Source of the DNA: Patescibacteria group bacterium
Lineage (GTDB): Bacteria; Patescibacteriota; Kazan-3B-28
Direction: 5' to 3'
Assembly (NCBI GenBank): GCA_028717565.1
Contig: JAQUNP010000001.1
Span: 229,996-293,995 of the forward strand
DNA: 64,000 nt
Shown: in pieces, positions 781-53,361 of the stretch
Layout of the letters: each line of letters opens with the position of its first letter
Numbering within the stretch: the first letter of the stretch is position 1
Program-made: the position numbers and the translations under genes
Notes under the pieces: model-generated
Told to the model about the DNA's origin: nothing
The model's database searches: none
Seen by the model: only the letters and a program-made list of their open reading frames with translations

Positions 781-800
781 ATTATCTTAGCACAAAGTGA

Positions 801-831
801 AGGCCGCCCGAGGTAGAACCAAGGGCGGCCT
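801..831 (-). terminator. GC-rich hairpin downstream of the 70-aa ORF
   Basis: AGGCCGCCC (801-809) pairs with GGGCGGCCT (823-831), 13-nt loop; the tail is not very T-rich. Confidence 0.5.
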
Positions 832-863
832 CTAGGGAGGTCGAATAGCCATGGATGTGCCTC

Positions 864-1076
864 CTACTTGTCGTAGACGGCGATAATTTCCACCTGGCCG
901 TCGTCCGTCCGCTGTGCTGTGAAACCATTCCGCGCCATATCTGTAGAGATGTACACCGAGTCTTGGGGCACAACTCCGACATACTCGAGGAACGGCTTGC
1001 CGTCGGGGTTAACGAACTGCAGAATGCTGCAGATAACCGCCACGGCGACTAGAATCCAGAGGCTGCGAATAGACAT
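864..1076 (-). CDS. hypothetical small secreted/membrane-anchored protein (70 aa), high-GC cassette A1
   Basis: ORF track. N-terminal hydrophobic signal-like segment (SLWILVAVAVICSIL). GGAGGG SD (1082-1087) 5 nt before the ATG, with its own promoter and terminator. No family recognised. Confidence 0.5.
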   Translation of the reverse strand: MSIRSLWILVAVAVICSILQFVNPDGKPFLEYVGVVPQDSVYISTDMARNGFTAQRTDDGQVEIIAVYDK

Positions 1077-1182
1077 TTTGACCCTCCAATAGGGTGCATC
1101 CTCACAATAGACCGAGGTTGTCTCGGTAATCGGTGTCGAGGCATAATTTACCCCTTATAGGGGCATACCACCGATTGCTCTC
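1077..1182 (-). promoter_or_regulatory. structured ~105-nt 5' leader of cassette A1
   Basis: 8-bp stem AATCGGTG (1128-1135) / CACCGATT (1169-1176) encloses CCCCT-ata-AGGGG. Next comes ACCGAG-acaac-CTCGGT, then CCCT-attgg-AGGG overlapping the SD. Confidence 0.4.
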
Positions 1183-1234
1183 ATTGTACCGCGTTTCCAC
1201 CTTTTTGTCAAGAGTTTTGTCGCTCCCAGAGCGC
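1183..1234 (-). promoter_or_regulatory. sigma70-type promoter of cassette A1 with shared upstream module
   Basis: Minus strand: GCGCTCTGGGAGCGACAAAACTC-TTGACA(1211-1206)-17 nt-TACAAT(1188-1183). The 29-mer at 1234-1206 matches 52275-52303 at 27/29 positions. Confidence 0.7.
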
Positions 1235-1354
1235 ATTTCTCGCAACTCCAAAGAAGTTGCAGTCCCGAAGCACTGAGGGATTTTCCATACACCTGAAAAC
1301 CATCCCGAGCCTGCCGAGTGACCACCCCTCAATTCTTCTTCGGGGTTCTTCGAA

Positions 1355-1389
1355 TAAAAAACTGCCCTGACACGCGAACGTGTCAGGGC
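1355..1389 (-). terminator. strong intrinsic terminator of the 69-aa ORF
   Basis: Minus strand GCCCTGACACG-ttcg-CGTGTCAGGGC followed by AGTTTTTTATT. Confidence 0.8.
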
Positions 1390-1413: not shown

Positions 1414-1623
1414 TTAACCTTCCTCTACACAAGCCGCGTGTCCGATGCTGCTAGCCGCCGTACCCCCCGGCTGACTTGCAGCAACTAGACCCGTGGCACC
1501 ACAGCCGCCACAGACAGCTGTGGCTCCCGTGGCGATGTTTCTGACGCCACAGGTCTTGCATCTGACTCGGCTACCACCGAGCGGGATGAATTGTGACTTC
1601 AGTTTCTTTGGTCCTTTGCCCAT
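1414..1623 (-). CDS. hypothetical small Cys/Gly/Ala-rich protein (69 aa), CxxC-x13-CxxC zinc-ribbon-like, cassette A2
   Basis: In-frame ATG at 1623 (MGKGPKKLKSQF...) preceded by GAGG 8 nt upstream; the ORF track starts 11 codons earlier. Own promoter and terminator. No family recognised. Confidence 0.45.
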   Translation of the reverse strand: MGKGPKKLKSQFIPLGGSRVRCKTCGVRNIATGATAVCGGCGATGLVAASQPGGTAASSIGHAACVEEG

Positions 1624-1699
1624 AGGCAATACCTCACAAATAGGGGATTGGTGCAATCAGTTGATAACAACTGAGCGCCCAAAATTTGGACGCTCGGTT

Positions 1700-3631: not shown

Positions 3632-4117
3632 TTACGACTGAACTGCCCGGGAGACCGTGCCGTCGGGGAAATACTTGGCGACCGGACACCAAATCGAGCT
3701 GCCACTCATGTCGCGGTCATAGAGGCATACCTCCTGGCCGCAGACCATGGCGACCGCTGCCAGCGCACGGTGACCGGGTGCAGCGAGCCCGTCCTGGATG
3801 ATGGGAATACCATCGAGCCCGCGGTAGCGTAGGTAGGCCGGCAGACCGTCTGCATCGTCCTGGATGGCTAACATGAGACTATCCAATCGGCTCTCCCCGC
3901 CTACCAGGAGAGAGAGCTGCGGCTGACTGGCCAAGCTGGTGAACTGTGGCGGAAACCGTCTGGCCTGCATGGCGCGGTCGATTTCGGTGCGGTCCTCGGG
4001 CGAGAGCGCTGTCGTACGCTCTGTCCAGGAACCACTGCCCTGCAGAGCCAGTGACTCTGGCTGGGGTACCGCAATCCCAGCACCGAACGCTGCGTCTGCG
4101 AAGCTGCTGTCACACAT
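3632..4117 (-). CDS. hypothetical protein (161 aa), high-GC cassette B
   Basis: ORF track. GAGGAG SD (4124-4129) 6 nt before the ATG. Alternative-frame ORFs overlap it, as expected for high GC. No domain recognised. Confidence 0.5.
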   Translation of the reverse strand: MCDSSFADAAFGAGIAVPQPESLALQGSGSWTERTTALSPEDRTEIDRAMQARRFPPQFTSLASQPQLSLLVGGESRLDSLMLAIQDDADGLPAYLRYRGLDGIPIIQDGLAAPGHRALAAVAMVCGQEVCLYDRDMSGSSIWCPVAKYFPDGTVSRAVQS

Positions 4118-4483: not shown

Positions 4484-4960
4484 ATGAAATTTATCACCAA
4501 TAGTTTGGCCGAGACCCACACGTTGGGGGAGAAGATGGGCAAAAAATTGAAGGGCGATGAGACCATCGCTTTGATTGGCGATTTGGGTGCAGGCAAGACC
4601 GCCTTCGTGCAAGGACTAGCCAAAGGATTGGGCGCCAAAGCCGCTGTGACAAGCCCAACATTTGTATTAGAAAAGATTTATAAGGGCACGGGAAACAGAA
4701 TGCTGCATCATTTTGATGTTTATAGGATTGAGGGAGAAGATGTCGGCAGCACAGGATTGCTAGAAATCTTGGGAGAGGTCGCCGACCCAGGGGAATCTCT
4801 GACCCGGAGGGGGATAGTGGTAATTGAATGGGCCGACAAGATCAAAAGTGTCTTGCCCCGTGATACGATTTGGATACGGATAATGCATCCGAGCGAAACC
4901 AAGCGCGAATTTATATTTGATATTCCTGAAAGTCGAGACTATCTACGCTATATAGCGTAA
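4484..4960 (+). CDS. tsaE: tRNA t6A37 biosynthesis ATPase TsaE
   Basis: 158 aa; P-loop GDLGAGKT and the SPTF motif typical of TsaE/YjeE. Confidence 0.9.
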   Translation: MKFITNSLAETHTLGEKMGKKLKGDETIALIGDLGAGKTAFVQGLAKGLGAKAAVTSPTFVLEKIYKGTGNRMLHHFDVYRIEGEDVGSTGLLEILGEVADPGESLTRRGIVVIEWADKIKSVLPRDTIWIRIMHPSETKREFIFDIPESRDYLRYIA

Positions 4961-4974
4961 TTACTAGACAAGAT

Positions 4975-6008: not shown

Positions 6009-9000
6009 CTATGGCTTCGGCGAACCGTCGCCGAAGTTGGTTAACCAATACCACAGATCGTAGCCGTTGACTAAGAAGTCACGATGCATATCGGCCAGAT
6101 AGGAGTCGGCATCCCAAGCCGCTAGGATAATATCTAAGTCGAGGCCATTGATTTGATTGTCGTGCCACGGAGTCGTGACTTGCTGTGCATTGATTTCGGG
6201 GGACAGGTCAGAGGCCTTGAGTTCATTAAAGGTCACATTGACTGTTGAGCTAGCCGAAGAAGTAGTGAATTGTTTGGTGGCCGCTAAGTGGTTTTTACCT
6301 TTAACCCACACGTCATAGGTTTTATTGGCGCGAAGATAGAACGGATTAGGTAGACCTTGCAGCAGCTCGTTGCCGTCACGGGAGTAGGCCTCATCGACTT
6401 CATAAGGTTCGACAGAGTTGGCCTCATGAATAGTTAACCAGATGCCTGGGTTGGTGACATTATCATAATCGTAATCGCGTGCCTCGACAGGTACCTTGAT
6501 GCCTAGATTGGTGATAGGCACCAGACCGTTTTCAAATGAAATCGGAGCCTTGACGGTAGTACCGGCAATTAAGGCAGTGGCTTCAGTTTTGTGAGCCGTA
6601 TTAGAGCTGACTCTAAAGACCACATGGCCACCATTACTGGTAGTAAATGTACTCGGATTATTTATGCCAGCGCCCGTGACATCGCGCAGAACATCCTGTG
6701 TTGAGTTAGTGGTACCAATGGTAACGGAAATACCATCCAGCGGGATGCCGTTATCATTTCTTACGGTCACCGTCACAGTCGAGTAGGCGCTGCCATTGGC
6801 TGGCACACGATACGGTGCCGCAGCAATATGACGATATCCCACGTCCTGGCCGGCGACTTTCTGCAATAACAAACTCTTTTGGGGCAGGAGCAGGGGTACG
6901 GCACTAGCAAAGACGTTGCCAATCTGACTACCTGGCACAAAGTTGGTGGTTAGTGTACCAGCTAAGCTCGTGACACCGTTGTAGCGAGTCAGATAATCCG
7001 CCGTGTGCTGACCAGCGAGTTTGAAAACAATCGGCCAGCCACCCATCGGTTTTAGAGTTTGACCATCAACCAAAGTAGCGGTTAGGATGACGTAATCACT
7101 GCCACCCACCTCCACAGTAGTTTTGTTAGCCGCCCACGTCAGCTGATATCTTTCGGTGTCAGCATTGTATTTGTTGATAGTTATTGGATTTGAGTACAAC
7201 CAGCCATAGGTAGGCAAGAGGGCCTTGGCACGAATCTCGACCGTGCCTACATTGGCATCGGCCACATAATGGCTATAGGCAATACCCAAGCCGTTGCTTT
7301 TATCAATAACCGGGTCTAGTGAGCCGGTGCCATCGGTAATGATGAAAGTCACATCCTGCTGAGGCACCACTTTGCCAGTGGGGTCAGTGAGGGTGGCAGT
7401 CAACAGAGAGGCGGCATATTGTCCAGGAATGATTTCGAGCTTATCCACTTCGCTAATCAACTCAAATTCGTAGACGTTGTCTTGCTTTATGATAGTGGTT
7501 GATCCTTCTACAAAGACGCCTTCCGTGGCATTTTCATACGTAGCCAAAATACTGGCTTCGATTGGTTCCACGCCGGCCTCTTCATTGTCGATGGTGTAGG
7601 TGAAGGTAAAACCGCCATGCTCGTCGGTAGTTACTTCTTTGGTGCTAAGAGTGCCTTGCTCCCGTTCATCTTGGAAGTGAATATCCACAACGGCGTCAGC
7701 TACTGGGATAATACCACCCGTGCCAACATCAAACCGAGCTAAGATGCCCGTAATAGTAGATTTTTCCAGACCGTTCCGTAGCAAAGCATTGGGGCTGGCA
7801 GTCATATCAATGGCATAACCACTGCTGGAGACGATTGTAAAATCATAGTGACCCGGATATTCAGCATGTTCGGTATAGGACTTGTCGACAAAGGTTTCGA
7901 CGTAGATATCCCAGTAACCAATCTTGGCACTGGCCGGGATAGAGGTTTCCACTACGAGTTGATTCGCACTGAGCACGTTGATCTTGGCAGGATCAGTTAT
8001 ATCAAAACCGTCCGTACCGGGATTCTTGTTATTAGGACTGGGCCGGAAATGAACTGTAGTTCTGTCCTTAGGCGCGACCGTATCAAAGTTGGTGTTAGTA
8101 CCAGTGATAGTAATGTTAAGTGTATCGCCACGATCGCTTGTACGCGGGACAACGCTGGCTAGATACGGGCCAGTGTTTTCGCCTGGTAGTACGGTAAAGA
8201 AAGTGGTTAGACGTTCCGTATAGGCAAAGCCCGTGTCGGTCACGGCAGGGGAGAGAGTAGTAACTCTCCAAATTCCTACAGGAGCCAAGCTGCCAATTTT
8301 TATATCAAAGGTTAGAACCTGTGAGTTCTGATTAATTTCTAAGTTCTCAACCTCAATTGTGCTGATACCTCCAGCCAAGTGATTATAAATTTCCCGACGA
8401 TCGGAGACAAAGTAACCATCAACTTGGGCATGGGCAATTATAAAATCGTAGCCAGGATTATTGGACTCATACCAAACCTCGCGGCAGGCCTCGCCATCAC
8501 CATAAGTACAGCTGGTTGGTGTGGTGTCGATAGTACCGCCGTTGGTAGCAATAAACTGGACGCTGCCACCGTATGTATCGGTAATATTAATCGGGTTGCC
8601 ATCTTGGCCAGTTTCATAAACTCTTACTTTAATAATGGAACGGGTAGTGTTTTCGTCTAACTCTTTGGGATCAACGCTGATGATGCTTAATGAATACGGG
8701 CTGACCGGCTCGATTGCGCGTAACCAAACATGGGCGTCATAATCAACACCAGCATAGGTAGTAGCGCCGACGATTTCGACCATGCCAGCATCCTCCGCAA
8801 CCGGTGCTCGATAGGTAATAGTGGCGATACCACTGGAATTGGTCGGGTAAGTCAATATATCCGGTGGCGAGAAATGGCCAGCGCCGGTGACAATTTCAAA
8901 AGTGATAGGTTGGCCGGCAATGGCGTTACCCTCGTCGTCAACAAATTTGGCAGAAACGGTTTTGGTAGATTGGCCATCCGCCACCACTTGATCGTCGCCC

Positions 9001-12000
9001 GAACTGTAAAGAGCGAGCTGTGATGGTTCATCGAAGAACACCGTGGTCTCGAGACCAAAATGCGAATCGGTACCGGCTATCTGCACATCGTAAATGGTCT
9101 GGCCTTGTTCGCCTTCATCGGGTTCGATGCGTATACCACCCGCATCCGGCACTCCAGCGGAGAACGGCCCCATGTATTGGGTAACTGAAGAACCAATGCC
9201 GCCGTATTGATACACCACACGCGATGGGTTTTCGGTTAAATTAACCGCCGTCAGTCCAGCTGTGGGGAAGCTAGAGGTTAAGTTGACTGGCATTTCAGCC
9301 ATAATTTGCCAACTTTGGCTAAAGGCATCGCCAACCGGAACGTACATGGTGGTTTCAGGGTGGAATTGGAAGCGAATCCACTCTATTTCCTCACCGGGGT
9401 CGCCACCACTTGCTCCTTCGCCAAAAGTTTCGCCCGTGGCTTCGGCAATATTTGGATACATTGGCACATGCGGATCAAGCAAGAAGATCTCGGAGTCGGC
9501 AGGAATGGTGCTGTCATAGCGGTTGTAGGTATTTTTTTGTTGGAAGTCACTTTGTCCACCATGAACCAACACGCCCCCATCCAAGCCAGTAGCAAAGTTG
9601 TTGTAAACCGGAATTGGTTCATGCTCCCCATCATGAATATCACGATAGTCGGCATCGACTTGCCAACCATTGGTCCATTTTTCAGTGCTAGCCGAGGCCT
9701 CAACCTCAATGCGAATGACATCTGTATCGTAAAGTGGACCACCAGTAGTCGGAATCCGATAGGCATAGACCTCCATCACTTCAACATCGTTGGCAATGTT
9801 TCGCAAACCTCCGACGGCGATGAAGTCGTCACCGCTGGGCGTGTAGGAAGCCAGGCCAAAGAAGGCACGACCATGCGCAACTCCGCTCTCCTTGAAGGCA
9901 TATTTAGCATCCAGTTTACTGCGACTATTTGCCAGTCCGGTTACCGGAGTGGTGCCCGACCAATAAGTATTATTAGCCGCCAGTCGGTAGGCCACATTAC
10001 CAACGAATTTATAGTTGAGGGATTTACCGAAGTCCATAACTGGCATACCAAATGGCTTATTGGATCCATCTGGTAGTTTCGACGTAGTATAAAACGGATG
10101 GATGACATCATCTATAACCCAAAAAGTTTTTACTCGGTAGTTATCAACCCGAGCCGTCTGAACATCTGGAGAGATGGGTTGTGGATCGGACGGCCAAGGC
10201 GGGAAGTGAGTAAAGTAGGTTTTGGCAAGCTTGCCGATATGGCTCACCTCCAAGCTCTTAAACCAGCTGGCACCGCCCAGCACTAGAATCTCTCCGGCTT
10301 GGGTTTTTATAACCTCATGTCCATAGCGACCTTGCGGCACTGGCACAATAGAGTAGACCGTTTCTGTCACAGCGTCGGGAGATTCAATGTAGGTGGGCGA
10401 GCCACCACCGGTAACATACCACTGTGGGGTGGTAGTAACTTGGTTGGCTTGAGCCATAAAGCGCAAGTGACCTAAGTGCATTACTCGATTGACCGCCCAC
10501 ACGTCACTCAACTGACCGATATAGTCACTTTCCAGTTCACGTTCAATTGAACCACTGGCAGTCGCGCTAGCGGTTTTGACAATATAGTGTTCACCCACAG
10601 TGGTGACGAAATCACCTGAAAGCAGGGCGTCGCGCAAAAGGGGAGCGAGGTCGATACTGGACTTGATTTTAAATTCATCAGTCATAGCCAAAACATCACC
10701 CATGTGGCTGGGGTGTAAACTGACCATGCGAATAGTAGCATGTTCCGAATAAACATCCGACGGAACCGCCCAAGCCAACTGCTGCGCGGTGACGTTCACG
10801 ATATTGTTGGTGCCTACTTTGTACCAGACTGGGTTGTCATCCAACTTTTTGACTGCATATTCCAACTGGACCGCAAAGCTTTCTTGGGTCGGGACGTTGG
10901 TGTACCAACGAATAGCATAGTTGCTGCCCGGTTCGATGACGGCTGGTTCTTGTTCGCCAGTTTCAGTGTTGAACGGTACAGGCGCACTAAATAATACCCA
11001 GGGCTGACCCCGGTCAGAAACTTGAAAAGTATTAGACAATGACCGTGTCTCTTGCGGATAGTAGTTTACCAACCAAGGATAAGGAGGGACTAAGGTTAAT
11101 CTGAATTGGACTTCGTAAGTAGTCCCGTCAGTTCCAAAGGTTTGCCAGGTATAGCCACCTCGCCCTGCGGGAACCTCGGTGACAAACTGCCAATCCGTCC
11201 AAGTGGTGTTGCCCACAGCACGCCTTTTGTATTCAACCTTTACCGTGCTGTTGGCACCATGAGAGTCCCAAGTGATTCTCTGGCTAGTGTATTCCGACCG
11301 ATCAGTTAGATTCTGCGCGGCTTGAATCCAGTACTCGGGCTTCAAAAGCACTGTGACAGTGTCCACATGTGCACCTGTACATTCAGGATCAATTTCAAAT
11401 TTACCAGTTTCAGGATTGAGACGGTAAGCGGATTGGTCACACAACTTAATGTCAGCCAGAATGTCGTTGCCATGGCCAACATAGGTACCACCCGAGTAAC
11501 TTCCCACGCGCCAAGCATATTTACCGTCGTTCTCTGTACGAGCACTGATAGTTTGCCATTCGGACCAGTAATTATCATCTTCAGGGGGTGGATCGTCGAA
11601 ACTAAACTCACCGCTGTCTTCGTCCAAAATGCGAATAAACAGAGCTGCGAATTGAGTCGCCTGTGGCTCCCAGGTTATGTCATAGTAATCACCAATCTGG
11701 AGTTCTTCCAGTTTTTGTCCGACTGGTTTGCTGGGATCAAAGTCGCGCGGCGTGATGATGCCTAGGTTACTTTGGGCGAAGGCCTTGGTTACAAAATTTT
11801 TCAACCTCATCGCCAGATTGACCATGGTGGTGCTCAATGATTTGTTGAGACCGGCCTCGGCGGCAGCCACGTCGGCAGCCCTGAGCGTATCGATTAGTGT
11901 TTGTCGCGTAGTGTTGATGCCCACATTTAAGCCCCGGTCAGTGGCCAGCTGCTGCAGCTGGTCGGTAGTCATCGAGTCGTACTCATCCGTGGTGGTAGTG

Positions 12001-18657: not shown

Positions 18658-18680
18658 CACCCAGAGACACGTCCTGGGTG
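18658..18680. terminator. bidirectional hairpin between the tRNA and the convergent lipoprotein gene
   Basis: CACCCAG-agacacgtc-CTGGGTG preceded by an A-run. Confidence 0.55.
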
Positions 18681-19648: not shown

Positions 19649-20191
19649 ATGGCGCTCAATCTACGGCCAATTAGCGGCTTTGCAAATATGCCAGTACTCG
19701 ACTTAGAATCTGGCGCCGTGCTGGGGAGAGTTTTGGATTGGATTTTTGATGTACCAAAACAAAAGTTGGTGGCTTTTGTGTTAAACCGTGGGAGTGTATT
19801 GGCCCCCGCACAAGTTTTAGTCCCAACCGATATTGTTGAGTATGGACCTAAAATGATTTTAGCTCGTAATCGTAATGCACTAATCCACCCAAAAGAAGTG
19901 GTCGGCCTGTTAGAATTGATGAAATTGCATCCCAACCTGCTGGGCCTAACCGCTACTAGCGTGGAGGGTAAGTTGCTTGGAAAAATTAATGACTGTGATA
20001 TTGATACAATCAGCTCGATCGTCCAGCGTTACCACATAGGTGCCCCCTTGGTGGCTCTAACCCAACCCGACCTTCTACTGCCGGCTAGTCGGTTTGTACG
20101 CACAGACAAGGGTCGTATTATCTTTGACGTCAGTACACAGCCAACCAAAACACTAGCTGAGTCCCAACAGACTCAAACCGAAACGGCCTAA
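19649..20191 (+). CDS. PRC-barrel domain protein
   Basis: ATG 19649 preceded by GGAGGTG. The N-terminal region MALNLRPISGFANMPVLDLESGAVLGRVLDW resembles PRC-barrel (YlmC/YmxH-like) proteins. The upstream part of the track ORF overlaps the divergent gene. Confidence 0.6.
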   Translation: MALNLRPISGFANMPVLDLESGAVLGRVLDWIFDVPKQKLVAFVLNRGSVLAPAQVLVPTDIVEYGPKMILARNRNALIHPKEVVGLLELMKLHPNLLGLTATSVEGKLLGKINDCDIDTISSIVQRYHIGAPLVALTQPDLLLPASRFVRTDKGRIIFDVSTQPTKTLAESQQTQTETA

Positions 20192-32951: not shown

Positions 32952-32990
32952 AGTATACTGGGAGGAAGCATTTCTTGAAAGCTCCCAGAG
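32952..32990 (-). promoter_or_regulatory. alaS leaderless promoter bracketed by a 7-bp inverted repeat
   Basis: Minus strand CTCTGGGAGC-TTTCAAG...CTCCCAG-TATACT-8 nt-ATG. CTGGGAG and CTCCCAG are separated by 17 nt. Confidence 0.5.
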
Positions 32991-33045: not shown

Positions 33046-33297
33046 CTACTTCTTTTTGCGAGCCGTGGTCTTACGACGACGGGTCGTAGTGCGTTTCTTG
33101 GTCGTAGTCCGCTTGCGAGTTGTAGTCCGCTTCTTGGCAGTAGACTTCCGACGGGTTGTTGTCCGCTTCTTGGCAGTAGACTTCCGGCGAGTTGTTGTCC
33201 GCTTCTTAGCGGTTGTCTTCCGACGGGTTGTCTTCTTGCGAGTAGCGGGTTTACGCTTTGCGGTTGTCCGCTTCTTGCGTATCATGCTGACCCCCAT
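33046..33297 (-). CDS. hypothetical poly-basic repeat protein (K/R/T-rich, histone H1-like composition)
   Basis: MGVSMIRKKRTTAKRK...; 12-aa repeat KKRTTTRRKSTA encoded by 36-bp tandem DNA repeats. Start uncertain (ATG 33297 or 33285; the track uses TTG 33321). Confidence 0.6.
   Translation of the reverse strand: MGVSMIRKKRTTAKRKPATRKKTTRRKTTAKKRTTTRRKSTAKKRTTTRRKSTAKKRTTTRKRTTTKKRTTTRRRKTTARKKK
33125..33196. repeat. 36-bp tandem repeat x2 (34/36 identical) with degenerate flanking copies
   Basis: GTCCGCTTCTTGGCAGTAGACTTCCGACGGGTTGTT (33125-33160) vs GTCCGCTTCTTGGCAGTAGACTTCCGGCGAGTTGTT (33161-33196). Confidence 0.9.
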
Positions 33298-36143: not shown

Positions 36144-36437
36144 TTAAGCTGGTGCACTGGTAGTAGGGATAGCCGAGACGTCGGCCGTGTCTTCAATGAC
36201 ACCCACCACGGTGACCATCTCTGCGCCATGATAGAGACGCTTGCACACATGGCAGTGCGGGCAACGTACTGGCATGGTGGGTGACCCTGGGGGCGGAGCC
36301 CCAGCACAGCTGAGTACGTCCACCAACTCGACGTGTAACCGCCGGCTGGTACCCTCCAAACACAGAGGGTGCACCGTGTCACCGACTTTGGGGTTAAGAC
36401 TCCTCGGGACCAAATGAGCGATCCTTGCCTTTTCCAT
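36144..36437 (-). CDS. hypothetical Cys/His-rich protein (97 aa), high-GC cassette C
   Basis: GGAGGG SD 8 nt before the ATG. CPHCHVC cluster. Own promoter. No family recognised. Confidence 0.45.
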   Translation of the reverse strand: MEKARIAHLVPRSLNPKVGDTVHPLCLEGTSRRLHVELVDVLSCAGAPPPGSPTMPVRCPHCHVCKRLYHGAEMVTVVGVIEDTADVSAIPTTSAPA

Positions 36438-36497: not shown

Positions 36498-37360
36498 TTG
36501 TCGGAAGACACGGCATACCGTGTTCCATCTGTCACAATTTCTACCGTACCGTCGGCTAATGTGGAATAAATATGTGAGCCGGCCTGTTGTAGCTTGGCCA
36601 ACGTTTCAGGGTGAGGGTGCCCAAAGCTATTCTTCCCGACTGTGAGGACAGCCGTTTCTGGCTGCACAACTTTCAAGAAAGCTTCGCTGGTCGAGTAGCG
36701 ACTGCCTTGATGCCCAACTTTTAGAACCTCTACATTGTGTAGCTGACTATGGGCTATTAGTTCTCGCTCTATGTCCGCACTGATATCAGCAACGAAAAGA
36801 GCGTTGAAGTCGCCACAGGTTAACTCTGAAACAATAGAGGTGTCATTGACATCGGTAAGTGTTTGGCTGAGATTGCCTCTATATAAAATGTCCAGCCGGC
36901 ATTCGTTAAAATCATATGTCATACCGGCTTTGGCCTCTACCAAATTAACCTGTTTCTGACTAATGACGCTATATAGCGTAGATATAGTGTGCGTATCGTA
37001 ATCAACCGGGTTGTGGAGAAACGCATCAACGTGATAGCGGTTTATGACTTCGATCAAACCGGTCACATGATCGGCATGTGGATGAGTTAAGACAACTAGA
37101 TCTAAGTTTCGTTTCCAAACCGGCAACCGGCTATCAATCTGAGCCACAACACTAGCGCTAGGGCCGCCGTCAATGAGGATGGCCTGCCGCTCGGGGGTAG
37201 TAATCAAGATGGAGTCGCCGTGACCTACATCTAAAAAATAAATGTGGGTGAGCCCATCATGTCGCGTTACGACGGCCCATACCCAAGTCAGATTGGCCAG
37301 CACCAATAGTATTGCTACCCATAATCTAGGCGTAAATTTGCCGAATACGTTTCTTCTCAC
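36494..37360 (-). CDS. comEC: ComEC C-terminal metallo-beta-lactamase domain protein (separate ORF)
   Basis: 288 aa; GTG start; one TM; FLDVGHGDS and THPHADH MBL motifs. Confidence 0.8.
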   Translation of the reverse strand: MRRNVFGKFTPRLWVAILLVLANLTWVWAVVTRHDGLTHIYFLDVGHGDSILITTPERQAILIDGGPSASVVAQIDSRLPVWKRNLDLVVLTHPHADHVTGLIEVINRYHVDAFLHNPVDYDTHTISTLYSVISQKQVNLVEAKAGMTYDFNECRLDILYRGNLSQTLTDVNDTSIVSELTCGDFNALFVADISADIERELIAHSQLHNVEVLKVGHQGSRYSTSEAFLKVVQPETAVLTVGKNSFGHPHPETLAKLQQAGSHIYSTLADGTVEIVTDGTRYAVSSDN

Positions 37361-41018: not shown

Positions 41019-41755
41019 GACAAATTATTTAGAATCTCGTCGTCTATATCAAAGTTGGCAAAAACTTCGGTGACATCTTCATGATCATCCAAGGCATCCA
41101 TTAAGTTCAGGATCTTCTTGGCCACTGCCGGATCGGATACTTTGACCATACTGGTTGGTACCATAGCCAGCTTGGCGTCCTTGGCCTCTAGGCCTTCGGT
41201 GGCGAGGGTCTGTTTGACTTTGTTCAAATCTTTGGGCTCAGTGTGGACTTCGAAACTATCGCCTAAATCTTCATAGCTGACTGCCCCGGCATCAATCAGT
41301 TTTAGTTCGGTCTCTTCATCTTTTTTGGGCACCACCAAAACTCCTCGGCTAACAAACTGCCAGGCCACTGACCCAGAACTACCGAGATTGCCGCCGGTTT
41401 TAGCAAAGATGTTTCTAAGCTCGGCTACTGTACGATTACGATTGTCGGTAAGGGCGTTGATCATAATCGCCACATTGCCTGGGCCCAAGCCCTCGTAAAC
41501 GACTTCCTCAATACTACTAGCATCTTTCCCCAGACCTGCACCCTTTTGAATGGCCTTTTCGATATTGATTGCCGGCATATTAGCGGCTTTGGCTTTTTGG
41601 ACTGCTAGTTTAAGCCGGAAGTTCATCTCTGGGTCAGCACCGCCCTTAGCCGCTACCTCAATAATCCGAGCGATTTTACTGAAAAGCGCACCACGCTTCG
41701 CATCGGTGGCGGCTTTTTTGTGCTTGATAGTAGACCATTTAGAATGCCCTGACAT
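41015..41755 (-). CDS. YebC/PmpR family DNA-binding transcriptional regulator
   Basis: Canonical N-terminus MSGHSKWSTIKHKKA at ATG 41755, 6 nt after TATACT (41767-41762). The 43-codon upstream extension in the track crosses a terminator-like hairpin. Confidence 0.9.
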   Translation of the reverse strand: MSGHSKWSTIKHKKAATDAKRGALFSKIARIIEVAAKGGADPEMNFRLKLAVQKAKAANMPAINIEKAIQKGAGLGKDASSIEEVVYEGLGPGNVAIMINALTDNRNRTVAELRNIFAKTGGNLGSSGSVAWQFVSRGVLVVPKKDEETELKLIDAGAVSYEDLGDSFEVHTEPKDLNKVKQTLATEGLEAKDAKLAMVPTSMVKVSDPAVAKKILNLMDALDDHEDVTEVFANFDIDDEILNNLS

Positions 41756-41787
41756 AAGCAGAGTATAACAAACTATAGTCCCAGAGC

Positions 41788-41829
41788 AAAAAAAGAGGGG
41801 TGGGATAATGCTCCTCCGAAGAGGTCCCC
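41788..41829 (-). terminator. UUCG-tetraloop hairpin plus T7 just upstream of the yebC promoter
   Basis: Minus strand GGGGACCTC-TTCG-GAGG...CCCACCCC followed by TCTTTTTTT. Confidence 0.5.
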
Positions 41830-41990
41830 ATCGCCCGAGAGCGACAGAGCAGGTCGCGCGGCTTTCAAACGCAACCTTAGACATTCACCACCCCCTGAGG
41901 AGGCAACGAGACATGGAAGTGCTCCATATCCCTTACCGACAATCTGGAACTCGTCGGCTTTGCTACGATATCATTAAAAAAGTCAAAGGG
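41830..41990 (-). other. high-GC structured transcript candidate (small RNA or micro-ORF cassette E)
   Basis: Hairpins CCGAC-...-GTCGG and TGGA-gcac-TCCA. 16-codon micro-ORF 41927-41877 (MEHFHVSLPPQGVVNV). Possible TTGACC/TTGACT -35 boxes near 41980-41995. 63% GC in my count of 41821-41880. Confidence 0.3.
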
Positions 41991-47142: not shown

Positions 47143-47171
47143 TTGACTGGAAGCTGGTTTTTTGATATAAT
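47143..47171 (+). promoter_or_regulatory. consensus promoter of the L,D-transpeptidase gene
   Basis: TTGACT(47143-47148)-17 nt-TATAAT(47166-47171). The ~65-nt leader contains GGGCGCCC and CCAAATTTGG palindromes. Confidence 0.65.
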
Positions 47172-49849: not shown

Positions 49850-52066
49850 CTAGTAATCTTCACCTTCTCGAAATTCCTCGCCGGTTTCTTCATCAACATC
49901 TGTGTTGCCAAAAATTCGAGGGAGATCTTCTTTTTTAATTAATACATCGCGAGGTTTAGCACCCTCTGAAGGACCGATGATGCCCTTATCTTCCAAAATA
50001 TCAAGCAGACGGGCAGCCCGGGCATAGCCGATTCTAAATCTTCTTTGTAAATACGACGCCGAGGCCTTGCCCGTTTTGGCCACCAACTCGACTGCATCCT
50101 GAAAGAGATCATCGCCCTCGTCGTTATCGCTGCCACCAAACATATTACCGCCACTGCCCTTGCTATCTCGCAAGACCTCTTCAACATATTGAGGCCCGCT
50201 CATTTCGCGCAGGGCATTGCTGACGGCCTTGACTTCTTTGTCATCAATAAAGCAGGCCTGGATACGTTTTGGCTTCGAAGAGTCAGACGGCATGAAGAGC
50301 ATGTCTCCATTGCCAAGCAGTTTTTCAGCCCCGATAGTATCTAATACCGTTCTGGAATCAGTACCAGAGGTAACCGCAAAAGCAATGCGAGACGGGAAGT
50401 TGGCCTTGATCAGACCCGTGATAACATCAACCGAAGGCCTTTGAGTGGCGAGCACCAAGTGGATACCAACAGCTCGAGACATCTGAGCCAATCGACAAAT
50501 ATAGGCCTCTACTTCCCGAGCCGAGACTGCCATCAGGTCTGCTAACTCATCTATAACCAACACAATGTAGGGCATTTTACCGTCTCGGTTTTGACGATTG
50601 TAGCTGGCGATATCACGCACTTTAGCATCGGACATCGCTCGATAACGTCTGTCCATTTCCACCACTAACCACTTTAAGGAGTTAATGGTTTTGTGTGGGT
50701 CAACGATGACTGGCGAGAGCAAGTGGGGGACATCGTTATAGGTCGTGAACTCTACTCGTTTGGGATCAACTAGAATAATCCTCAAGTCCTCTGGAGAATT
50801 TTGGTACAAAAGACCAATCAACAAACTATTTAGAAAAACGCTTTTACCAGCACCAGTCGCACCAGCAATTAGCAGATGTGGCATTTTAATCAAATCGGTC
50901 GCCATCGGAGTACCAGCCACATCGCGACCTAAGGGGATTCTCAAAGGGGACTTGATGCTATCAAACTCACCGGATTCCATCACTTCCCGCAAACGCACTA
51001 AAGCAGTTTTTTTGTTAGGCACCTCGATACCTACCAGTGAACGGCCGGGGATAGGTGCCTCAATACGGATGGGGTGAGCCGCTAAAGCCAGAGCTAAGTC
51101 ATTAGTAAGGTTGGCGATCCGCGACAGCTTGATACCCGAGGCGGGCTTTAAAGTATATTGCGTGACAGTTGGGCCAACGTTGACCTCATGCATTTCCACA
51201 GCAATATTAAAGTCCTCCAGAGTTTCTTGGATAGTAGCGATATTGGCATTAATGTTTCCGCTATCAACTTTGGTGACCGCATCACTAAGCAGATCAATGG
51301 ACGGAGGAGACCAGTCGCCAGTTGGAGTGAACTGGGGGACAAACTCGGTTTCTTGTGCGGTCTTTTCTGACTTCGACTTGAACATGGCCTTGTAGGCCTT
51401 TTTTGCGCCATCATCTTCTCCCGCCTCTTCACCGATTTCAAAGTCGCTATTGATTTTAACATCAGGCATCTTTGGTATCTCTGGCAAAGATATCTTTGTC
51501 CGCAAATAGAGATCTTTTAGGGGCTGGCCGAAGGCAAACAAAAGCGAAATGGCAAAGCCCACCACAATAATTAAGAACGAAGCCCAGAAATCCATCAGAT
51601 TGAGTAGAAAACGACTAACCCAGAATCCCAAAAAGCCACCACCGCCACCTTCTTGAGCCAAAGCCAATCCGTTTTCTGGACCGATAAAGACATGCATTAG
51701 GGCGGACAGGGTGGTAATAAAAAGTAGCAAGCCAATCACATTGGCGGTTTTGAAATGGTAGCGCACGGGGTAGAAAAGGGCGACGCCAGAACCGGCGAAG
51801 AGGATAGGCATAATAAAGCTGGTCCAGCCCAAACCTAGACGTAGCGCTGTAAAGAAAATCTTACCCACGCTGCCAGCCCCCCCAAGAATGGCCAACAGAG
51901 TAAAAAGACCTAGCCCTACCAGTAGAATAGCGATTATCTCGCGGACTACCGCCGGATCTAGCTCTAGGTCAAAATTTAAATTGTCCACCCAATTGGTGGC
52001 CTTATTTTGGTAGGAGCGATAATTATATCTCCTAGTACCTTTTTTCTTTTTTCTTTTCCTAGCCAT
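49850..52066 (-). CDS. ftsK: DNA translocase FtsK
   Basis: 738 aa; N-terminal TM helices; motor domain GATGAGKS Walker A, VIDELADL; gamma winged-helix C-terminus. Confidence 0.95.
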   Translation of the reverse strand: MARKRKKKKGTRRYNYRSYQNKATNWVDNLNFDLELDPAVVREIIAILLVGLGLFTLLAILGGAGSVGKIFFTALRLGLGWTSFIMPILFAGSGVALFYPVRYHFKTANVIGLLLFITTLSALMHVFIGPENGLALAQEGGGGGFLGFWVSRFLLNLMDFWASFLIIVVGFAISLLFAFGQPLKDLYLRTKISLPEIPKMPDVKINSDFEIGEEAGEDDGAKKAYKAMFKSKSEKTAQETEFVPQFTPTGDWSPPSIDLLSDAVTKVDSGNINANIATIQETLEDFNIAVEMHEVNVGPTVTQYTLKPASGIKLSRIANLTNDLALALAAHPIRIEAPIPGRSLVGIEVPNKKTALVRLREVMESGEFDSIKSPLRIPLGRDVAGTPMATDLIKMPHLLIAGATGAGKSVFLNSLLIGLLYQNSPEDLRIILVDPKRVEFTTYNDVPHLLSPVIVDPHKTINSLKWLVVEMDRRYRAMSDAKVRDIASYNRQNRDGKMPYIVLVIDELADLMAVSAREVEAYICRLAQMSRAVGIHLVLATQRPSVDVITGLIKANFPSRIAFAVTSGTDSRTVLDTIGAEKLLGNGDMLFMPSDSSKPKRIQACFIDDKEVKAVSNALREMSGPQYVEEVLRDSKGSGGNMFGGSDNDEGDDLFQDAVELVAKTGKASASYLQRRFRIGYARAARLLDILEDKGIIGPSEGAKPRDVLIKKEDLPRIFGNTDVDEETGEEFREGEDY

Positions 52067-52210
52067 ACCCTGTAGAAGATTTTAGAAGGTAATATTTACA
52101 ATTTGATATACACTTTTTTACTAGCGTTGCCCCAGAGAGAAGGATAATTGCATCGTAGGTTATCCCAATATTACCAGATAGAATTGTTCTAAAATTCTCT
52201 ACAGGGCATA
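52064..52210. mobile_element. MITE-like element: 139 bp with 20-bp terminal inverted repeats (18/20) flanked by a CATA direct repeat
   Basis: CCCTGTAGAAGATTTTAGAA (52068-52087) vs TTCTAAAATTCTCTACAGGG (52187-52206). CATA at 52064-52067 and 52207-52210. The left CATA contains the ftsK start codon. Confidence 0.4.
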
Positions 52211-52225
52211 GTTTTTGACTATCTG

Positions 52226-52254
52226 ATTATAGCATATTTTATAGGTGTTGTCAG
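52226..52254 (-). promoter_or_regulatory. ftsK promoter
   Basis: CTGACA(52254-52249)-17 nt-TATAAT(52231-52226), upstream of the inverted-repeat element. Confidence 0.55.
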
Positions 52255-52274
52255 CCCCCTATGTTGCAAAAAAC

Positions 52275-52326
52275 GCGCTCTGGGAGCAAGAAAACTCTTG
52301 ACAGGACCCTTAATTTGGAGAATAAT
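52275..52326 (+). promoter_or_regulatory. promoter of cassette D with shared upstream module
   Basis: GCGCTCTGGGAGCAAGAAAACTC-TTGACA(52298-52303)-17 nt-AATAAT(52321-52326). 27/29 identical to 1234-1206 on the minus strand. Partial repeat GCGTTCTGGGGGAAACTCTAGAACGC in the leader (52342-52367). Confidence 0.7.
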
Positions 52327-52392
52327 TGGGCCATCATTCTAGCGTTCTGGGGGAAACTCTAGAACGCACATCAAAATTAAGTGAGGTATGCA

Positions 52393-53361
52393 ATGGAAAC
52401 CATTTTCCATGTGTTAGGCGTTGCGTTGTTTGTCATCTATGCGGTCCTGGTAATCTGGGACCCTCGACCTGCCGGATGGGGCTGGATCAGCGGGTGGGTA
52501 CGCCTCCGCTGGCTATCCCTGCTCGGCTTCACTGCCGGTCTGGCAATCATGTGCTGGACCATTCAGCTGGATCAGCCCGTCGTCGATTCTACGGCCTGGA
52601 CCACGACCTTCAATGGAGGTACGTGGTGGAGCTGGTTGTTAATCGCCGGCAGTGTAGCCGTGATGTCGTTTGGCGCTTTCCGGCCAGATGAGATCACGGG
52701 AACTAATCGCTTTACAGGCGATGATGTCCGGCTGGCCTTCGGTGGAGCACTGTTAGCAGTGATCTTCTGGGTTCCCCAAGGGAACCTGCAGATCAACTGC
52801 GGCGACACTATCCTGTGTCCTGTCCGCGGTACAGTTGCCGCCGGCCAGACCACAGAGGCTTATGTGGCTGCTGCCAAGAACGGTGCCCACCCTGATGTGG
52901 ACACGGAGAGGATCTTTACTCGCCCCGCCTTAGGGGACGAGGAAAGCGATTCTGCGCGTCTGATCTGGACCGGCTGGGGCCGGTGGATAGTGGTCGGCGT
53001 CGACTCACAGCCGGCTGCGAATGCCGCCCGGCTGCCACACTGGGCGAGTAAGCGCTTTAATGCGGCGAACAACCCGTCGCTCCTCAGCGCTGCCTCAGGT
53101 GGCTGGCTCAGACGCATGGTGCAACTGGATATCAATCCCGCACCCGAAAGCATCGGCATTGATGTTCCGCCCGCCACACCATCCGCACCGGCAGCCGACC
53201 CTGTGATGGAAAAGCTGGATGGCATCTCTGACCAGATCACCGCGCAGGAAGAGCACCTCAAAAACCTGGACGAGAAAGTCCAGGATATGGATGAACGGTT
53301 AGCACATGCCGAAGAGGGTGTGCGACAGTTCATTGAGATCGGGAAAAACGGCTGTGGTTAG
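52393..53361 (+). CDS. hypothetical Trp-rich 4-TM membrane protein with C-terminal coiled coil (322 aa), high-GC cassette D
   Basis: ATG 52393 preceded by GTGAGG. TM helices in the first ~150 aa. C-terminal heptad-like EKLDGISDQITAQEEHLKNLDEKVQDMDERLAHAEE. Confidence 0.55.
   Translation: METIFHVLGVALFVIYAVLVIWDPRPAGWGWISGWVRLRWLSLLGFTAGLAIMCWTIQLDQPVVDSTAWTTTFNGGTWWSWLLIAGSVAVMSFGAFRPDEITGTNRFTGDDVRLAFGGALLAVIFWVPQGNLQINCGDTILCPVRGTVAAGQTTEAYVAAAKNGAHPDVDTERIFTRPALGDEESDSARLIWTGWGRWIVVGVDSQPAANAARLPHWASKRFNAANNPSLLSAASGGWLRRMVQLDINPAPESIGIDVPPATPSAPAADPVMEKLDGISDQITAQEEHLKNLDEKVQDMDERLAHAEEGVRQFIEIGKNGCG

Follow-up and report, generated by a model that had tools for sequence, protein, structure and literature searches.

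Why should two unrelated genes in a very small bacterial genome be preceded by almost the same promoter DNA? The question is raised by a 64-kb stretch of contig JAQUNP010000001.1 from a Patescibacteria group bacterium. The whole of this stretch is called the window here, and within-genome counts cover the window only. The initial annotation described a 29-nt promoter module shared by two unrelated cassettes, listed several diverged or partial copies of it, and proposed either a common regulator for the cassettes or a promoter that travels with them. Our results suggest that the module makes up the upstream half of strong promoters of a sigma-70-type class, one that appears to be conserved across the candidate-division-Kazan lineage of Patescibacteria. 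The finding is real and broader than first claimed; the mechanism is one that we infer, and the more exotic parts of the original description fail.

Two copies of the module in the window

The two copies agree at 27/29 nt between the minus strand, 1234->1206 (GCGCTCTGGGAGCGACAAAACTCTTGACA), and the plus strand, 52275-52303 (GCGCTCTGGGAGCAAGAAAACTCTTGACA), as the initial annotation had reported. In a local alignment the shared block is longer still, with 36/41 nt identical (88%) from GTTGC through TTGACA, and the identity ends precisely at the last base of the -35 hexamer. The 17-nt gap that had been read between this hexamer and the -10 boxes TACAAT and AATAAT is present at both copies. Each copy is joined to a promoter of the sigma-70 type (-35 and -10 hexamers 16-18 nt apart), with 11/12 consensus matches and a 17-nt spacer, and transcription is predicted to start at about 1176 (minus strand) and about 52333 (plus strand). 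The two copies consist of the following elements; the E values are those of a hidden Markov model (HMM) of the family described below.

1206..1246 (1246->1206), minus strand: module copy 1, 41 nt, GTTGCGAGAAATGCGCTCTGGGAGCGACAAAACTCTTGACA, family HMM E 6e-14
1232->1222, minus strand: core of copy 1, GCTCTGGGAGC
1211->1206, minus strand: -35 hexamer of copy 1, TTGACA
1183..1188 (1188->1183), minus strand: -10 hexamer of copy 1, TACAAT, 17 nt after the -35; 11/12 consensus matches
52263..52303, plus strand: module copy 2, 41 nt, GTTGCAAAAAACGCGCTCTGGGAGCAAGAAAACTCTTGACA, family HMM E 9.8e-15
52277-52287, plus strand: core of copy 2
52298-52303, plus strand: -35 hexamer of copy 2
52321..52326, plus strand: -10 hexamer of copy 2, AATAAT, after a 17-nt spacer with TTTGGAG just before the hexamer

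The pair is the longest inverted repeat within the window (I1). With a position weight matrix (PWM) the two copies score 55-56 bits, and the best of 30 shuffles scores 17. Beyond these two, the PWM and an nhmmer search with the family model gave no further full copy, either within the window or across about 230 kb of DNA from relatives. The genes downstream had been called unrelated, and protein comparison agrees: the proteins of 70 and 322 amino acids (aa) are not related to each other, and neither has a Pfam family. The inverted repeat CGCTC-TGG-GAGCG, given as the upstream half of the module, holds with its 5-bp arms for copy 1 only. The family core is the asymmetric and weakly palindromic GCTCTGG[GA]AGC, in which the arms GCTC/GAGC are 4 bp long, and the variants GCTCTGGAAGC, GGGAGT and GGGATT cut the symmetry to 3 bp.

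Known repeats and RNAs do not account for the pair. [quoted passage not shown] A known structured RNA was also rejected for want of an Rfam match: at the gathering threshold the window has no match except tRNAs, and at E<=1 there is nothing in 760-1400 or 52067-52420.

A module family in Kazan-group genomes

The exact pattern GCGCTCTGGGAGCNNNAAAACTC had zero matches in public genome-contig and metagenome-contig collections, and a looser pattern (GCTCTGGGANNNNNAAAANNNTTGACA) was therefore needed, into which the fixed spacing and a perfect -35 are built. It returned 32 metagenome loci and one viral contig. Contigs of relatives or metagenomes compared with the window are given L-numbers here (L003, L094, L122 and so on). 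By our own count, 18 of the approximately 26 distinct sequences show features beyond the pattern, namely TAnnnT exactly 17 nt after TTGACA, the 'GC' completing GCTCTGGGAGC in most of them, and an A-rich stretch just upstream. About eight distinct matches look like chance; the mreC region of a gut bacterium is among them five times, and none has a -10. An alignment of 20 family sequences, including both window copies, has TAnnnT at 17 nt in 19/20, the exception being window copy 2 (AATAAT), and its consensus is AaAAAt..GCTCTGGGAGCg.aAAAA.tcTTGACA-N17-TAnnnT. The layout runs from an A-tract at about -64..-59 through an 11-bp core, GCTCTGG(G/A)AGC, at about -56..-46 (centre about -51) and an AAAA at about -43..-39 to TTGACA, 17 nt and TAnnnT. 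In a third of the members, window copy 2 among them, tTTGGAG stands directly before the -10.

The contigs that can be named come from the same lineage: L102/L105 and L103 are from candidate division Kazan, and L084 and L096 are metagenome-assembled genomes (MAGs) of Patescibacteria. The FtsK protein of the window is 70-74% identical to its closest homologs, all of them from Kazan/Patescibacteria MAGs and one from a complete 560-kb chromosome; the window is more than a tenth of a very small genome of the candidate phyla radiation (CPR). Non-syntenic contigs share the module DNA only, over 30-60 nt at 83-97% identity, and extra copies that were not search seeds lie on family contigs L084 (at 10786) and L106 (at 147). 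Across the family the downstream genes have no relation to one another; most are orphans, many of their products begin with a hydrophobic segment, and open reading frames (ORFs) 3' of the modules tend towards higher GC than their surroundings. Because Pfam gave almost nothing for 16 downstream proteins (a pentapeptide repeat, a radical SAM domain and a marginal TSP3 repeat just under the cutoff), no functional theme could be made out beyond 'orphan, often membrane or secreted'.

One member is carried by a phage. Contig L115 (IMGVR_UViG_3300020125_000659), which has the small and large terminase subunits about 2-3 kb away, holds at 6699-7160 a GC-rich ORF of 92 aa that stands behind a module promoter and ahead of a strong terminator. 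Two other contigs, L092 (1331-1545) and L106 (1-185), which are related, have 175 nt of non-coding DNA and the module in common, up to about 8 nt past the -35; beyond that point nothing is alike, whether in the remaining spacer, the -10, the leader or the gene. Among L083/L084/L102/L092, similarity continues through the -10.

The family sequences have no match in Rfam. In the literature the motif strings matched only unrelated papers among the matches listed, and the papers listed for Patescibacteria promoters or Kazan bacteria held nothing relevant. These sequences show the core to be a conserved, position-specific promoter motif of this lineage and one of its phages, and not a private repeat. 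It is a previously undescribed cis-regulatory motif, with its putative regulon, in an uncultured lineage, and not a new kind of system.

Within the window, shorter matches to the core recur at other promoters. The 8-mer CTGG[GA]AGC is intergenic at 4/5 occurrences against 0.6 expected (binomial p about 8e-4), and all four intergenic sites are in sense orientation and in promoters, those of the two modules, of alaS and of a ykuD-like gene. Within these 64 kb the motif thus stands upstream of several unrelated units and is enriched in intergenic DNA, as would be expected of an operator shared by a regulon. Core-like sites outside the modules, the one at yebC included, are these.

32981..32990, minus strand: core 10-mer CTCTGGGAGC abutting the alaS -35 (TTTCAA), with the inverted partner CTCCCAG just before the -10
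47147..47154, plus strand: CTGGAAGC directly behind the -35's TTGA, ykuD-like gene promoter (TTGACTGGAAGCTGGTTTTTTGATATAAT; TTGACTGGAAGC)
41778..41787, minus strand: GCTCTGGGAC at the -35/spacer of yebC, whose promoter has an extended -10 (TGtTATACT)
Spacer comparison for the ykuD-like promoter: window 47143-47171 (plus strand), L116 4232-4276, L118 4685-4724, L120 1927-1964

These sites are of unequal standing. In the ykuD promoter, TTGACT-G-AGC-G-TTTT is invariant in four genomes. The 10-mer that had been noted at alaS is present, exact and in the promoter, but it is at noise level for the whole-module HMM and is not conserved upstream of alaS in L116 or L120. The yebC match (GCTCTGGGA at 41787-41779) is likewise in the promoter and at noise level for the HMM; it is partly conserved, with a GCTC-N3-GAGC-like sequence in L116 and an inverted one in L118, and is not found in L120. 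The other copies listed by the initial annotation fare worse. A CTCTGGG at 52140-52131 sits in the ftsK leader and could not be confirmed as a module copy, and a further CTCTGGG at 18660 is a terminator stem. The family HMM detects both window copies, L004 and L005, and is silent even at E<=50 on the supposed diverged copy at 4208->4183 and on the supposed partial copy at 52342-52367, which is a hairpin in a 5' untranslated region (5'-UTR).

The loci with core-like sites have some features of their own. At 32958-32990 (minus strand) the alaS promoter has a perfect 7-bp inverted repeat, CTGGGAG/CTCCCAG, flanking the -35 and spacer; L116 and L120 have not conserved it, and either a hairpin or a pair of operators may be what it represents. 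At 33077-33220, a small, very basic K/R/T-rich ORF just upstream of alaS (minus strand) contains three to four 36-nt repeats in tandem (D1). The promoter of the ykuD-like L,D-transpeptidase gene has a near-invariant spacer, TTGACTGGGAGCgGTTTTTtTGnTATAAT, in four genomes with about 65-75% protein identity, which is unusual for a spacer. The 289-aa yebC ORF (41755-41884 region) is over-extended, and the conserved protein starts at the ATG at 41755 (MSGHSKW...). Inverted occurrences of the core are found at yebC in L118 and upstream of a gene for an extracytoplasmic function (ECF) sigma factor in L124. In the latter, an inverted A-tract and core (GCTCCCAGAGCTGGTTTTTGG, 20077-20100, minus strand) precede a putative ECF-type promoter, TGTCAC-N17-CGTTAT, by about 17 nt and are partly kept in L122; the ECF sigma gene is downstream, at 20152. 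Sigma-54 and ECF-promoter readings of the core itself were rejected on sequence inspection, as the spacings do not fit.

An old copy at ftsK and a recent one in an insertion

Copy 2 lies between ftsK and cassette D, the unit with the 322-aa gene.

49850-52066, minus strand: FtsK gene
52226..52254, minus strand: divergent ftsK promoter, CTGACA-17-TGnTATAAT
52342..52367, plus strand: 5'-UTR stem-loop GCGUUCUGGGG-GAAA-CUCUAGAACGC, -19.5 kcal/mol, z -4.06; not in the orthologous L094 leader
52393..53361, plus strand: fast-evolving 322-aa membrane protein without a Pfam family; its same-position ortholog in L094 is 35% identical

The module is kept at this ftsK-divergent position in relatives, with the full core in L094, copies in L004/L098 (29/41 nt in L004), a version in L005 and a weaker form, AAAAT.A.GGCTGG(G/A)AGCG..TTGAC, in L003/L006/L008. 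The motif is retained although spacers and downstream genes differ, and the FtsK identity of these relatives is about 70%. A phylogenetic footprint is thus seen at the ftsK-divergent promoter (L094, L004 and L005, and partly L003/L006/L008) as well as at ykuD in four genomes. Measured from the core to the rightward -35, the distance is the same in the window and in L094; measured to the ftsK promoter, it changes by about 9 nt. It is therefore the rightward promoter of which the core is a part. A homolog search with the 322-aa protein returned itself only, and a local tblastn gave its 35% ortholog in L094. That contig has diverged orthologs of the 322-aa (35%) and 451-aa (26%) proteins between ftsK and rnj, and since they sit at the same place, cassette D is not foreign but has been passed down vertically while evolving fast.

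The surroundings of copy 1 are different in kind.

800..1363, minus strand (approximate extent): segment absent from L122, L123 and L124, with the rny/zinc-ribbon ORF on one side and the M16 peptidase gene on the other; it contains the module, the leader, the 70-aa ORF and hairpins
1077..1176, minus strand: predicted structured 5' leader of about 100 nt, reckoned from the predicted transcription start; minimum free energy -34.4 kcal/mol, z -2.97, no Rfam match
864..1076, minus strand: 70-aa orphan ORF with an N-terminal hydrophobic segment; GC content at third codon positions (GC3) 0.72 versus about 0.49 for the genome
759..831, minus strand: two cassette-end hairpins, one GC-rich (831->801) and one followed by a T-run (783->759), with the M16 peptidase gene next

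Relatives for this locus were fetched through RNase Y homologs. Their gene order is rny, a small zinc-ribbon ORF (L121, L122) and the M16 peptidase gene (L122-L124; the L121 contig stops earlier). Because neither the module nor the 70-aa ORF is present at the rny-M16 locus of these relatives, the approximately 560 nt from roughly 1363->800 are an insertion. Among 1.84e9 representative proteins the 70-aa ORF finds only itself, bar a borderline 22-residue match (E 3.5e-4). Copy 1 is thus recent, and its cassette is, among the genomes compared, specific to this genome. The insertion shows no target-site duplication, terminal (inverted) repeat, transposase or integrase signature, and a transposon-like insertion was rejected on the first two counts.

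The kinship of the two copies fits this picture. They agree at 17/22 of the module positions left free by the search pattern, the best of 190 family pairs, while copy 2 agrees with its own orthologs at 7/22 (L094) and 10/22 (L098). No other two members of the family are as close as the window copies, which indicates that the promoter was duplicated or converted inside this genome. Copy 2 is the ancestral one, since relatives still have a version there, divergent from ftsK. The two are paralogs, and copy 1 probably arose by within-genome duplication or gene conversion.

Other small genes nearby are also peculiar. Small ORFs of high GC3 (0.62-0.72 versus about 0.49 for the genome) lie at 864-1076, 1414-1656, 3632-4117, 52393-53361 and also 36144-36437, most with their own promoter and terminator; in GC3 the zinc-ribbon ORF is an exception, at 0.52 with an overall GC of 57%. 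This Cys-rich zinc-ribbon-like ORF (1414-1656, minus strand) follows rny and is probably shorter, with the start MGKGPKK; at the corresponding place L121 and L122 each have a counterpart that carries CxxC pairs and is trailed by a strong terminator. At 3632-4117 (minus strand), between tsaE and rny, is a GC-rich orphan ORF of 161 aa. The tsaE-rny position is occupied in L121-L124 by an LTD-domain protein of 643-785 aa, and in L121 and L123 by a TrpR-like gene too; 3632-4117 looks like a second gene-replacement locus beside the copy 1 cassette. A 24-nt repeat, 96% complementary between 4940-4963 and 36961-36984 and holding the perfect 14-nt palindrome ACGCTATATAGCGT (I3), has one copy at the tsaE/tsaB junction and the other inside a coding region.

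A possible regulator, its rivals and known systems

The reading that we prefer is that the core is the predicted site of a lineage-specific DNA-binding protein at about -51, with flanking A-tracts for the carboxy-terminal domain of the RNA polymerase alpha subunit (alpha-CTD); on the sequences at hand we hold the chances of this to be even. The protein would contact RNA polymerase in the fashion of a class-I-type activator, and the A-tracts would serve as contacts for the alpha-CTD similar to those of upstream (UP) elements. At ykuD, yebC and alaS the same 8-mer overlies the -35 or spacer, which suggests that there the protein would repress instead. The module promoters may make up a regulon whose products are accessory and fast-evolving, most of them membrane or secreted proteins, and copy 1 may have come with the genome-specific cassette of about 560 nt or been recruited to it. 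Both proposals of the initial annotation thus find some support, but their framing was too local for a lineage-wide family. In favour of a common regulator, or of a common contact with RNA polymerase, at least 18 other loci of the Kazan/Patescibacteria lineage, with unrelated genes, have the motif at the corresponding place in the promoter, and it is kept at the ftsK-divergent site. For a travelling promoter speak the insertion around copy 1, its nearness to copy 2 among the 190 pairs and the phage unit; cassette D, not being foreign, does not fit.

Several observations weigh against a regulator bound at the core. None of the candidates seen in relatives (MerR_1, TrpR-like, ECF sigma, YebC) could be named as the regulator. 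Promoters with a good -10 set 17 nt from a consensus -35 have no obvious need for an activator. The palindrome is weak, its 3-4-bp arms surrounding an asymmetric CTGG. The fixed spacing and perfect -35 of the metagenome set are imposed by the search pattern, and unseeded cores lie at 9, 10, 13 and 29 nt from a -35, or in coding sequence. Full modules seldom occur: of 71 promoter-like sites in about 300 kb of unseeded Kazan DNA, roughly 6 are core-like (>=8/11), and in that comparison the exact core is confined to the two window copies, of which copy 2 lies outside the promoter-site scan on account of its AATAAT -10. The 8-mer occurs nine times in about 120 kb of DNA from relatives, and three of these sites are intergenic against 1.15 expected, which is a weak enrichment.

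Concerning the candidates themselves, the YebC-family motif predicted in the literature is SSTAGACR (PMC5561223). YebC was set aside as a weak candidate only, since this published motif does not match, while the motif in its own promoter is partly conserved. The TrpR-like genes of relatives carry different palindromes upstream; these are long and perfect, e.g. TATGGTACTACGGTACGTACCGTAGTACCATA (L121 about 3670-3800; L123 about 9480-9560). Upstream of the MerR_1 genes in L122/L123/L124 there are many repeated palindromic units, CCTACAACACCGTGTTGTAGG or CCGCAACGTTGCGG.

Could RNA polymerase read the module by itself? A factor-independent UP-like or curved element, with phased A-tracts around a GC core recognised by the alpha-CTD or sigma region 4, would make the promoters constitutively strong and leave no regulon. 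The A-tracts stand roughly two helical turns apart, at about -64..-59 and at the position of the proximal UP subsite (about -43..-39), the core is asymmetric, each module is joined to a consensus or near-consensus TTGACA-17-TAnnnT promoter, and the same promoter type occurs in a phage, as expected of a signal for the host polymerase. However, only a small minority of strong promoters have the module, tRNA and other 12/12 consensus promoters being without it; its centre is GC-rich, unlike UP elements, and the 8-mer is also found at other promoter positions and, inverted, in the L124 ECF-sigma leader. We regard this explanation as possible, though unlikely. More improbable, as a full account, is that a reused promoter block was copied between loci or brought in by a moron-like cassette, possibly of a phage, with no shared regulation. 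The concept is a published one (PMC3488235), and it accommodates well the closeness of the window copies, the insertion absent from relatives, the GC-rich orphan 70-aa ORF with its own terminator, the similar promoter, GC-rich ORF and terminator unit of the L115 phage, and the divergence of L092 and L106 about 8 nt past the -35 after 175 shared nt and the module. Recent descent cannot explain, however, why the core and its position are kept in many genomes with dissimilar flanks and at orthologous loci over about 30% protein divergence, and copy 1 lacks the target-site duplication, terminal repeat, transposase or integrase signature of a mobile element. Since copying explains the extra identity of the window copies but not the family, it complements a site for a lineage-specific protein.

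The abrupt end of homology, at the -35 in the window copies and within the spacer in L092/L106, might also mark a recombination substrate, dispersed repeats of about 40 nt or a site near the -35 allowing the genes downstream ('slots') to be exchanged. The genes behind the syntenic ftsK-divergent module do vary among relatives, and downstream ORFs tend to be GC-richer than their locus. Spacers are normally unconstrained, though, so that a loss of similarity past the -35 is expected regardless; L083/L084/L102/L092 remain similar through the -10, cassette D is vertically inherited in L094, and no recombinase was seen nearby among those ORFs that are annotated. Such a junction seems to us highly improbable. 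Almost certainly the repeat is neither a chance similarity nor a weak opposite-strand terminator. An identity of 36/41 is far beyond random expectation. A scanner did list GCTCCCAGAGCG followed by TTTTTT on the minus strand at copy 2, but the terminator was rejected, its stem being only 4-5 bp and its T-run missing from copy 1 and from the family consensus.

A site for a lineage-specific protein at about -51 therefore remains our preferred reading. One may speculate further that Kazan bacteria and their phages use the module promoters as fixed 'expression slots', in which novel, compositionally foreign or de novo genes would time and again be installed or exchanged by recombination at or just past the -35 and so come under one lineage-specific regulator. 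This would be a promoter-anchored form of gene capture without an integrase, distinct from integrons; we consider it very improbable. To our knowledge almost nothing is known of transcriptional regulation in CPR/Patescibacteria, which cannot be grown alone. A position-specific motif in many Kazan-group genomes and a phage offers a concrete way into the gene regulation of the CPR. The genes behind it are a candidate regulon whose fast-evolving products, surface or secreted proteins, could plausibly take part in interactions with hosts or phages, and the 41-nt module could be used as a probe for finding the regulator and as a marker for recently recruited genes. The module also provides a case of promoter reuse inside a very small genome.

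Several known systems resemble the module in part. Phage 'morons' are independent promoter-gene-terminator units of atypical composition. The copy 1 cassette and the L115 unit are like them in consisting of a promoter, a small GC-rich ORF and a terminator between conserved genes; copy 1 is unlike them in being chromosomal with no prophage context in view, and cassette D in being vertically inherited. Putative mobile promoters, as defined by Matus-Garcia et al. 2012 (PMC3488235), are stretches of at least 50 nt and at least 80% identity within about 150 nt upstream of coding sequences that are not homologous. The concept applies to the module, since near-identical non-coding DNA lies upstream of non-homologous, mostly hypothetical genes within and across genomes, but the block of 41 nt at 88% falls short of the 50-nt minimum. 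The family, moreover, is united by a short core at a fixed promoter position and not by recent overall identity.

In class I activator-dependent promoters the activator binds upstream of the -35, for example CRP at -61.5, and phage P2 Ogr and Mu Mor-type sites are near -45 to -55. The module is similar in having a short, partly symmetric site upstream of the -35 (here about -51), adjoining A-rich DNA and restricted to a subset of promoters. It differs in its very short half-sites and asymmetric centre, in its consensus -35 and good -10, where typical activator-dependent promoters have a poor -35, and in that its 8-mer is also found over the -35 or spacer of other promoters. The UP element of promoters of the E. 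coli rrnB P1 type is A/T-rich and lies at -40 to -60. In common with it the module has an A-tract at the proximal subsite (-43..-39) and a second A-tract upstream, both fixed relative to the -35. Unlike it, the module has a conserved GC-rich 11-mer at -56..-46 and is found at a minority of promoters; the DNA from -59 to -38 is not continuously A/T-rich, and only the proximal A-tract fits. Taken together, these comparisons suggest that, in its working, the element would come nearest to a class-I activator site joined with a proximal UP subsite.

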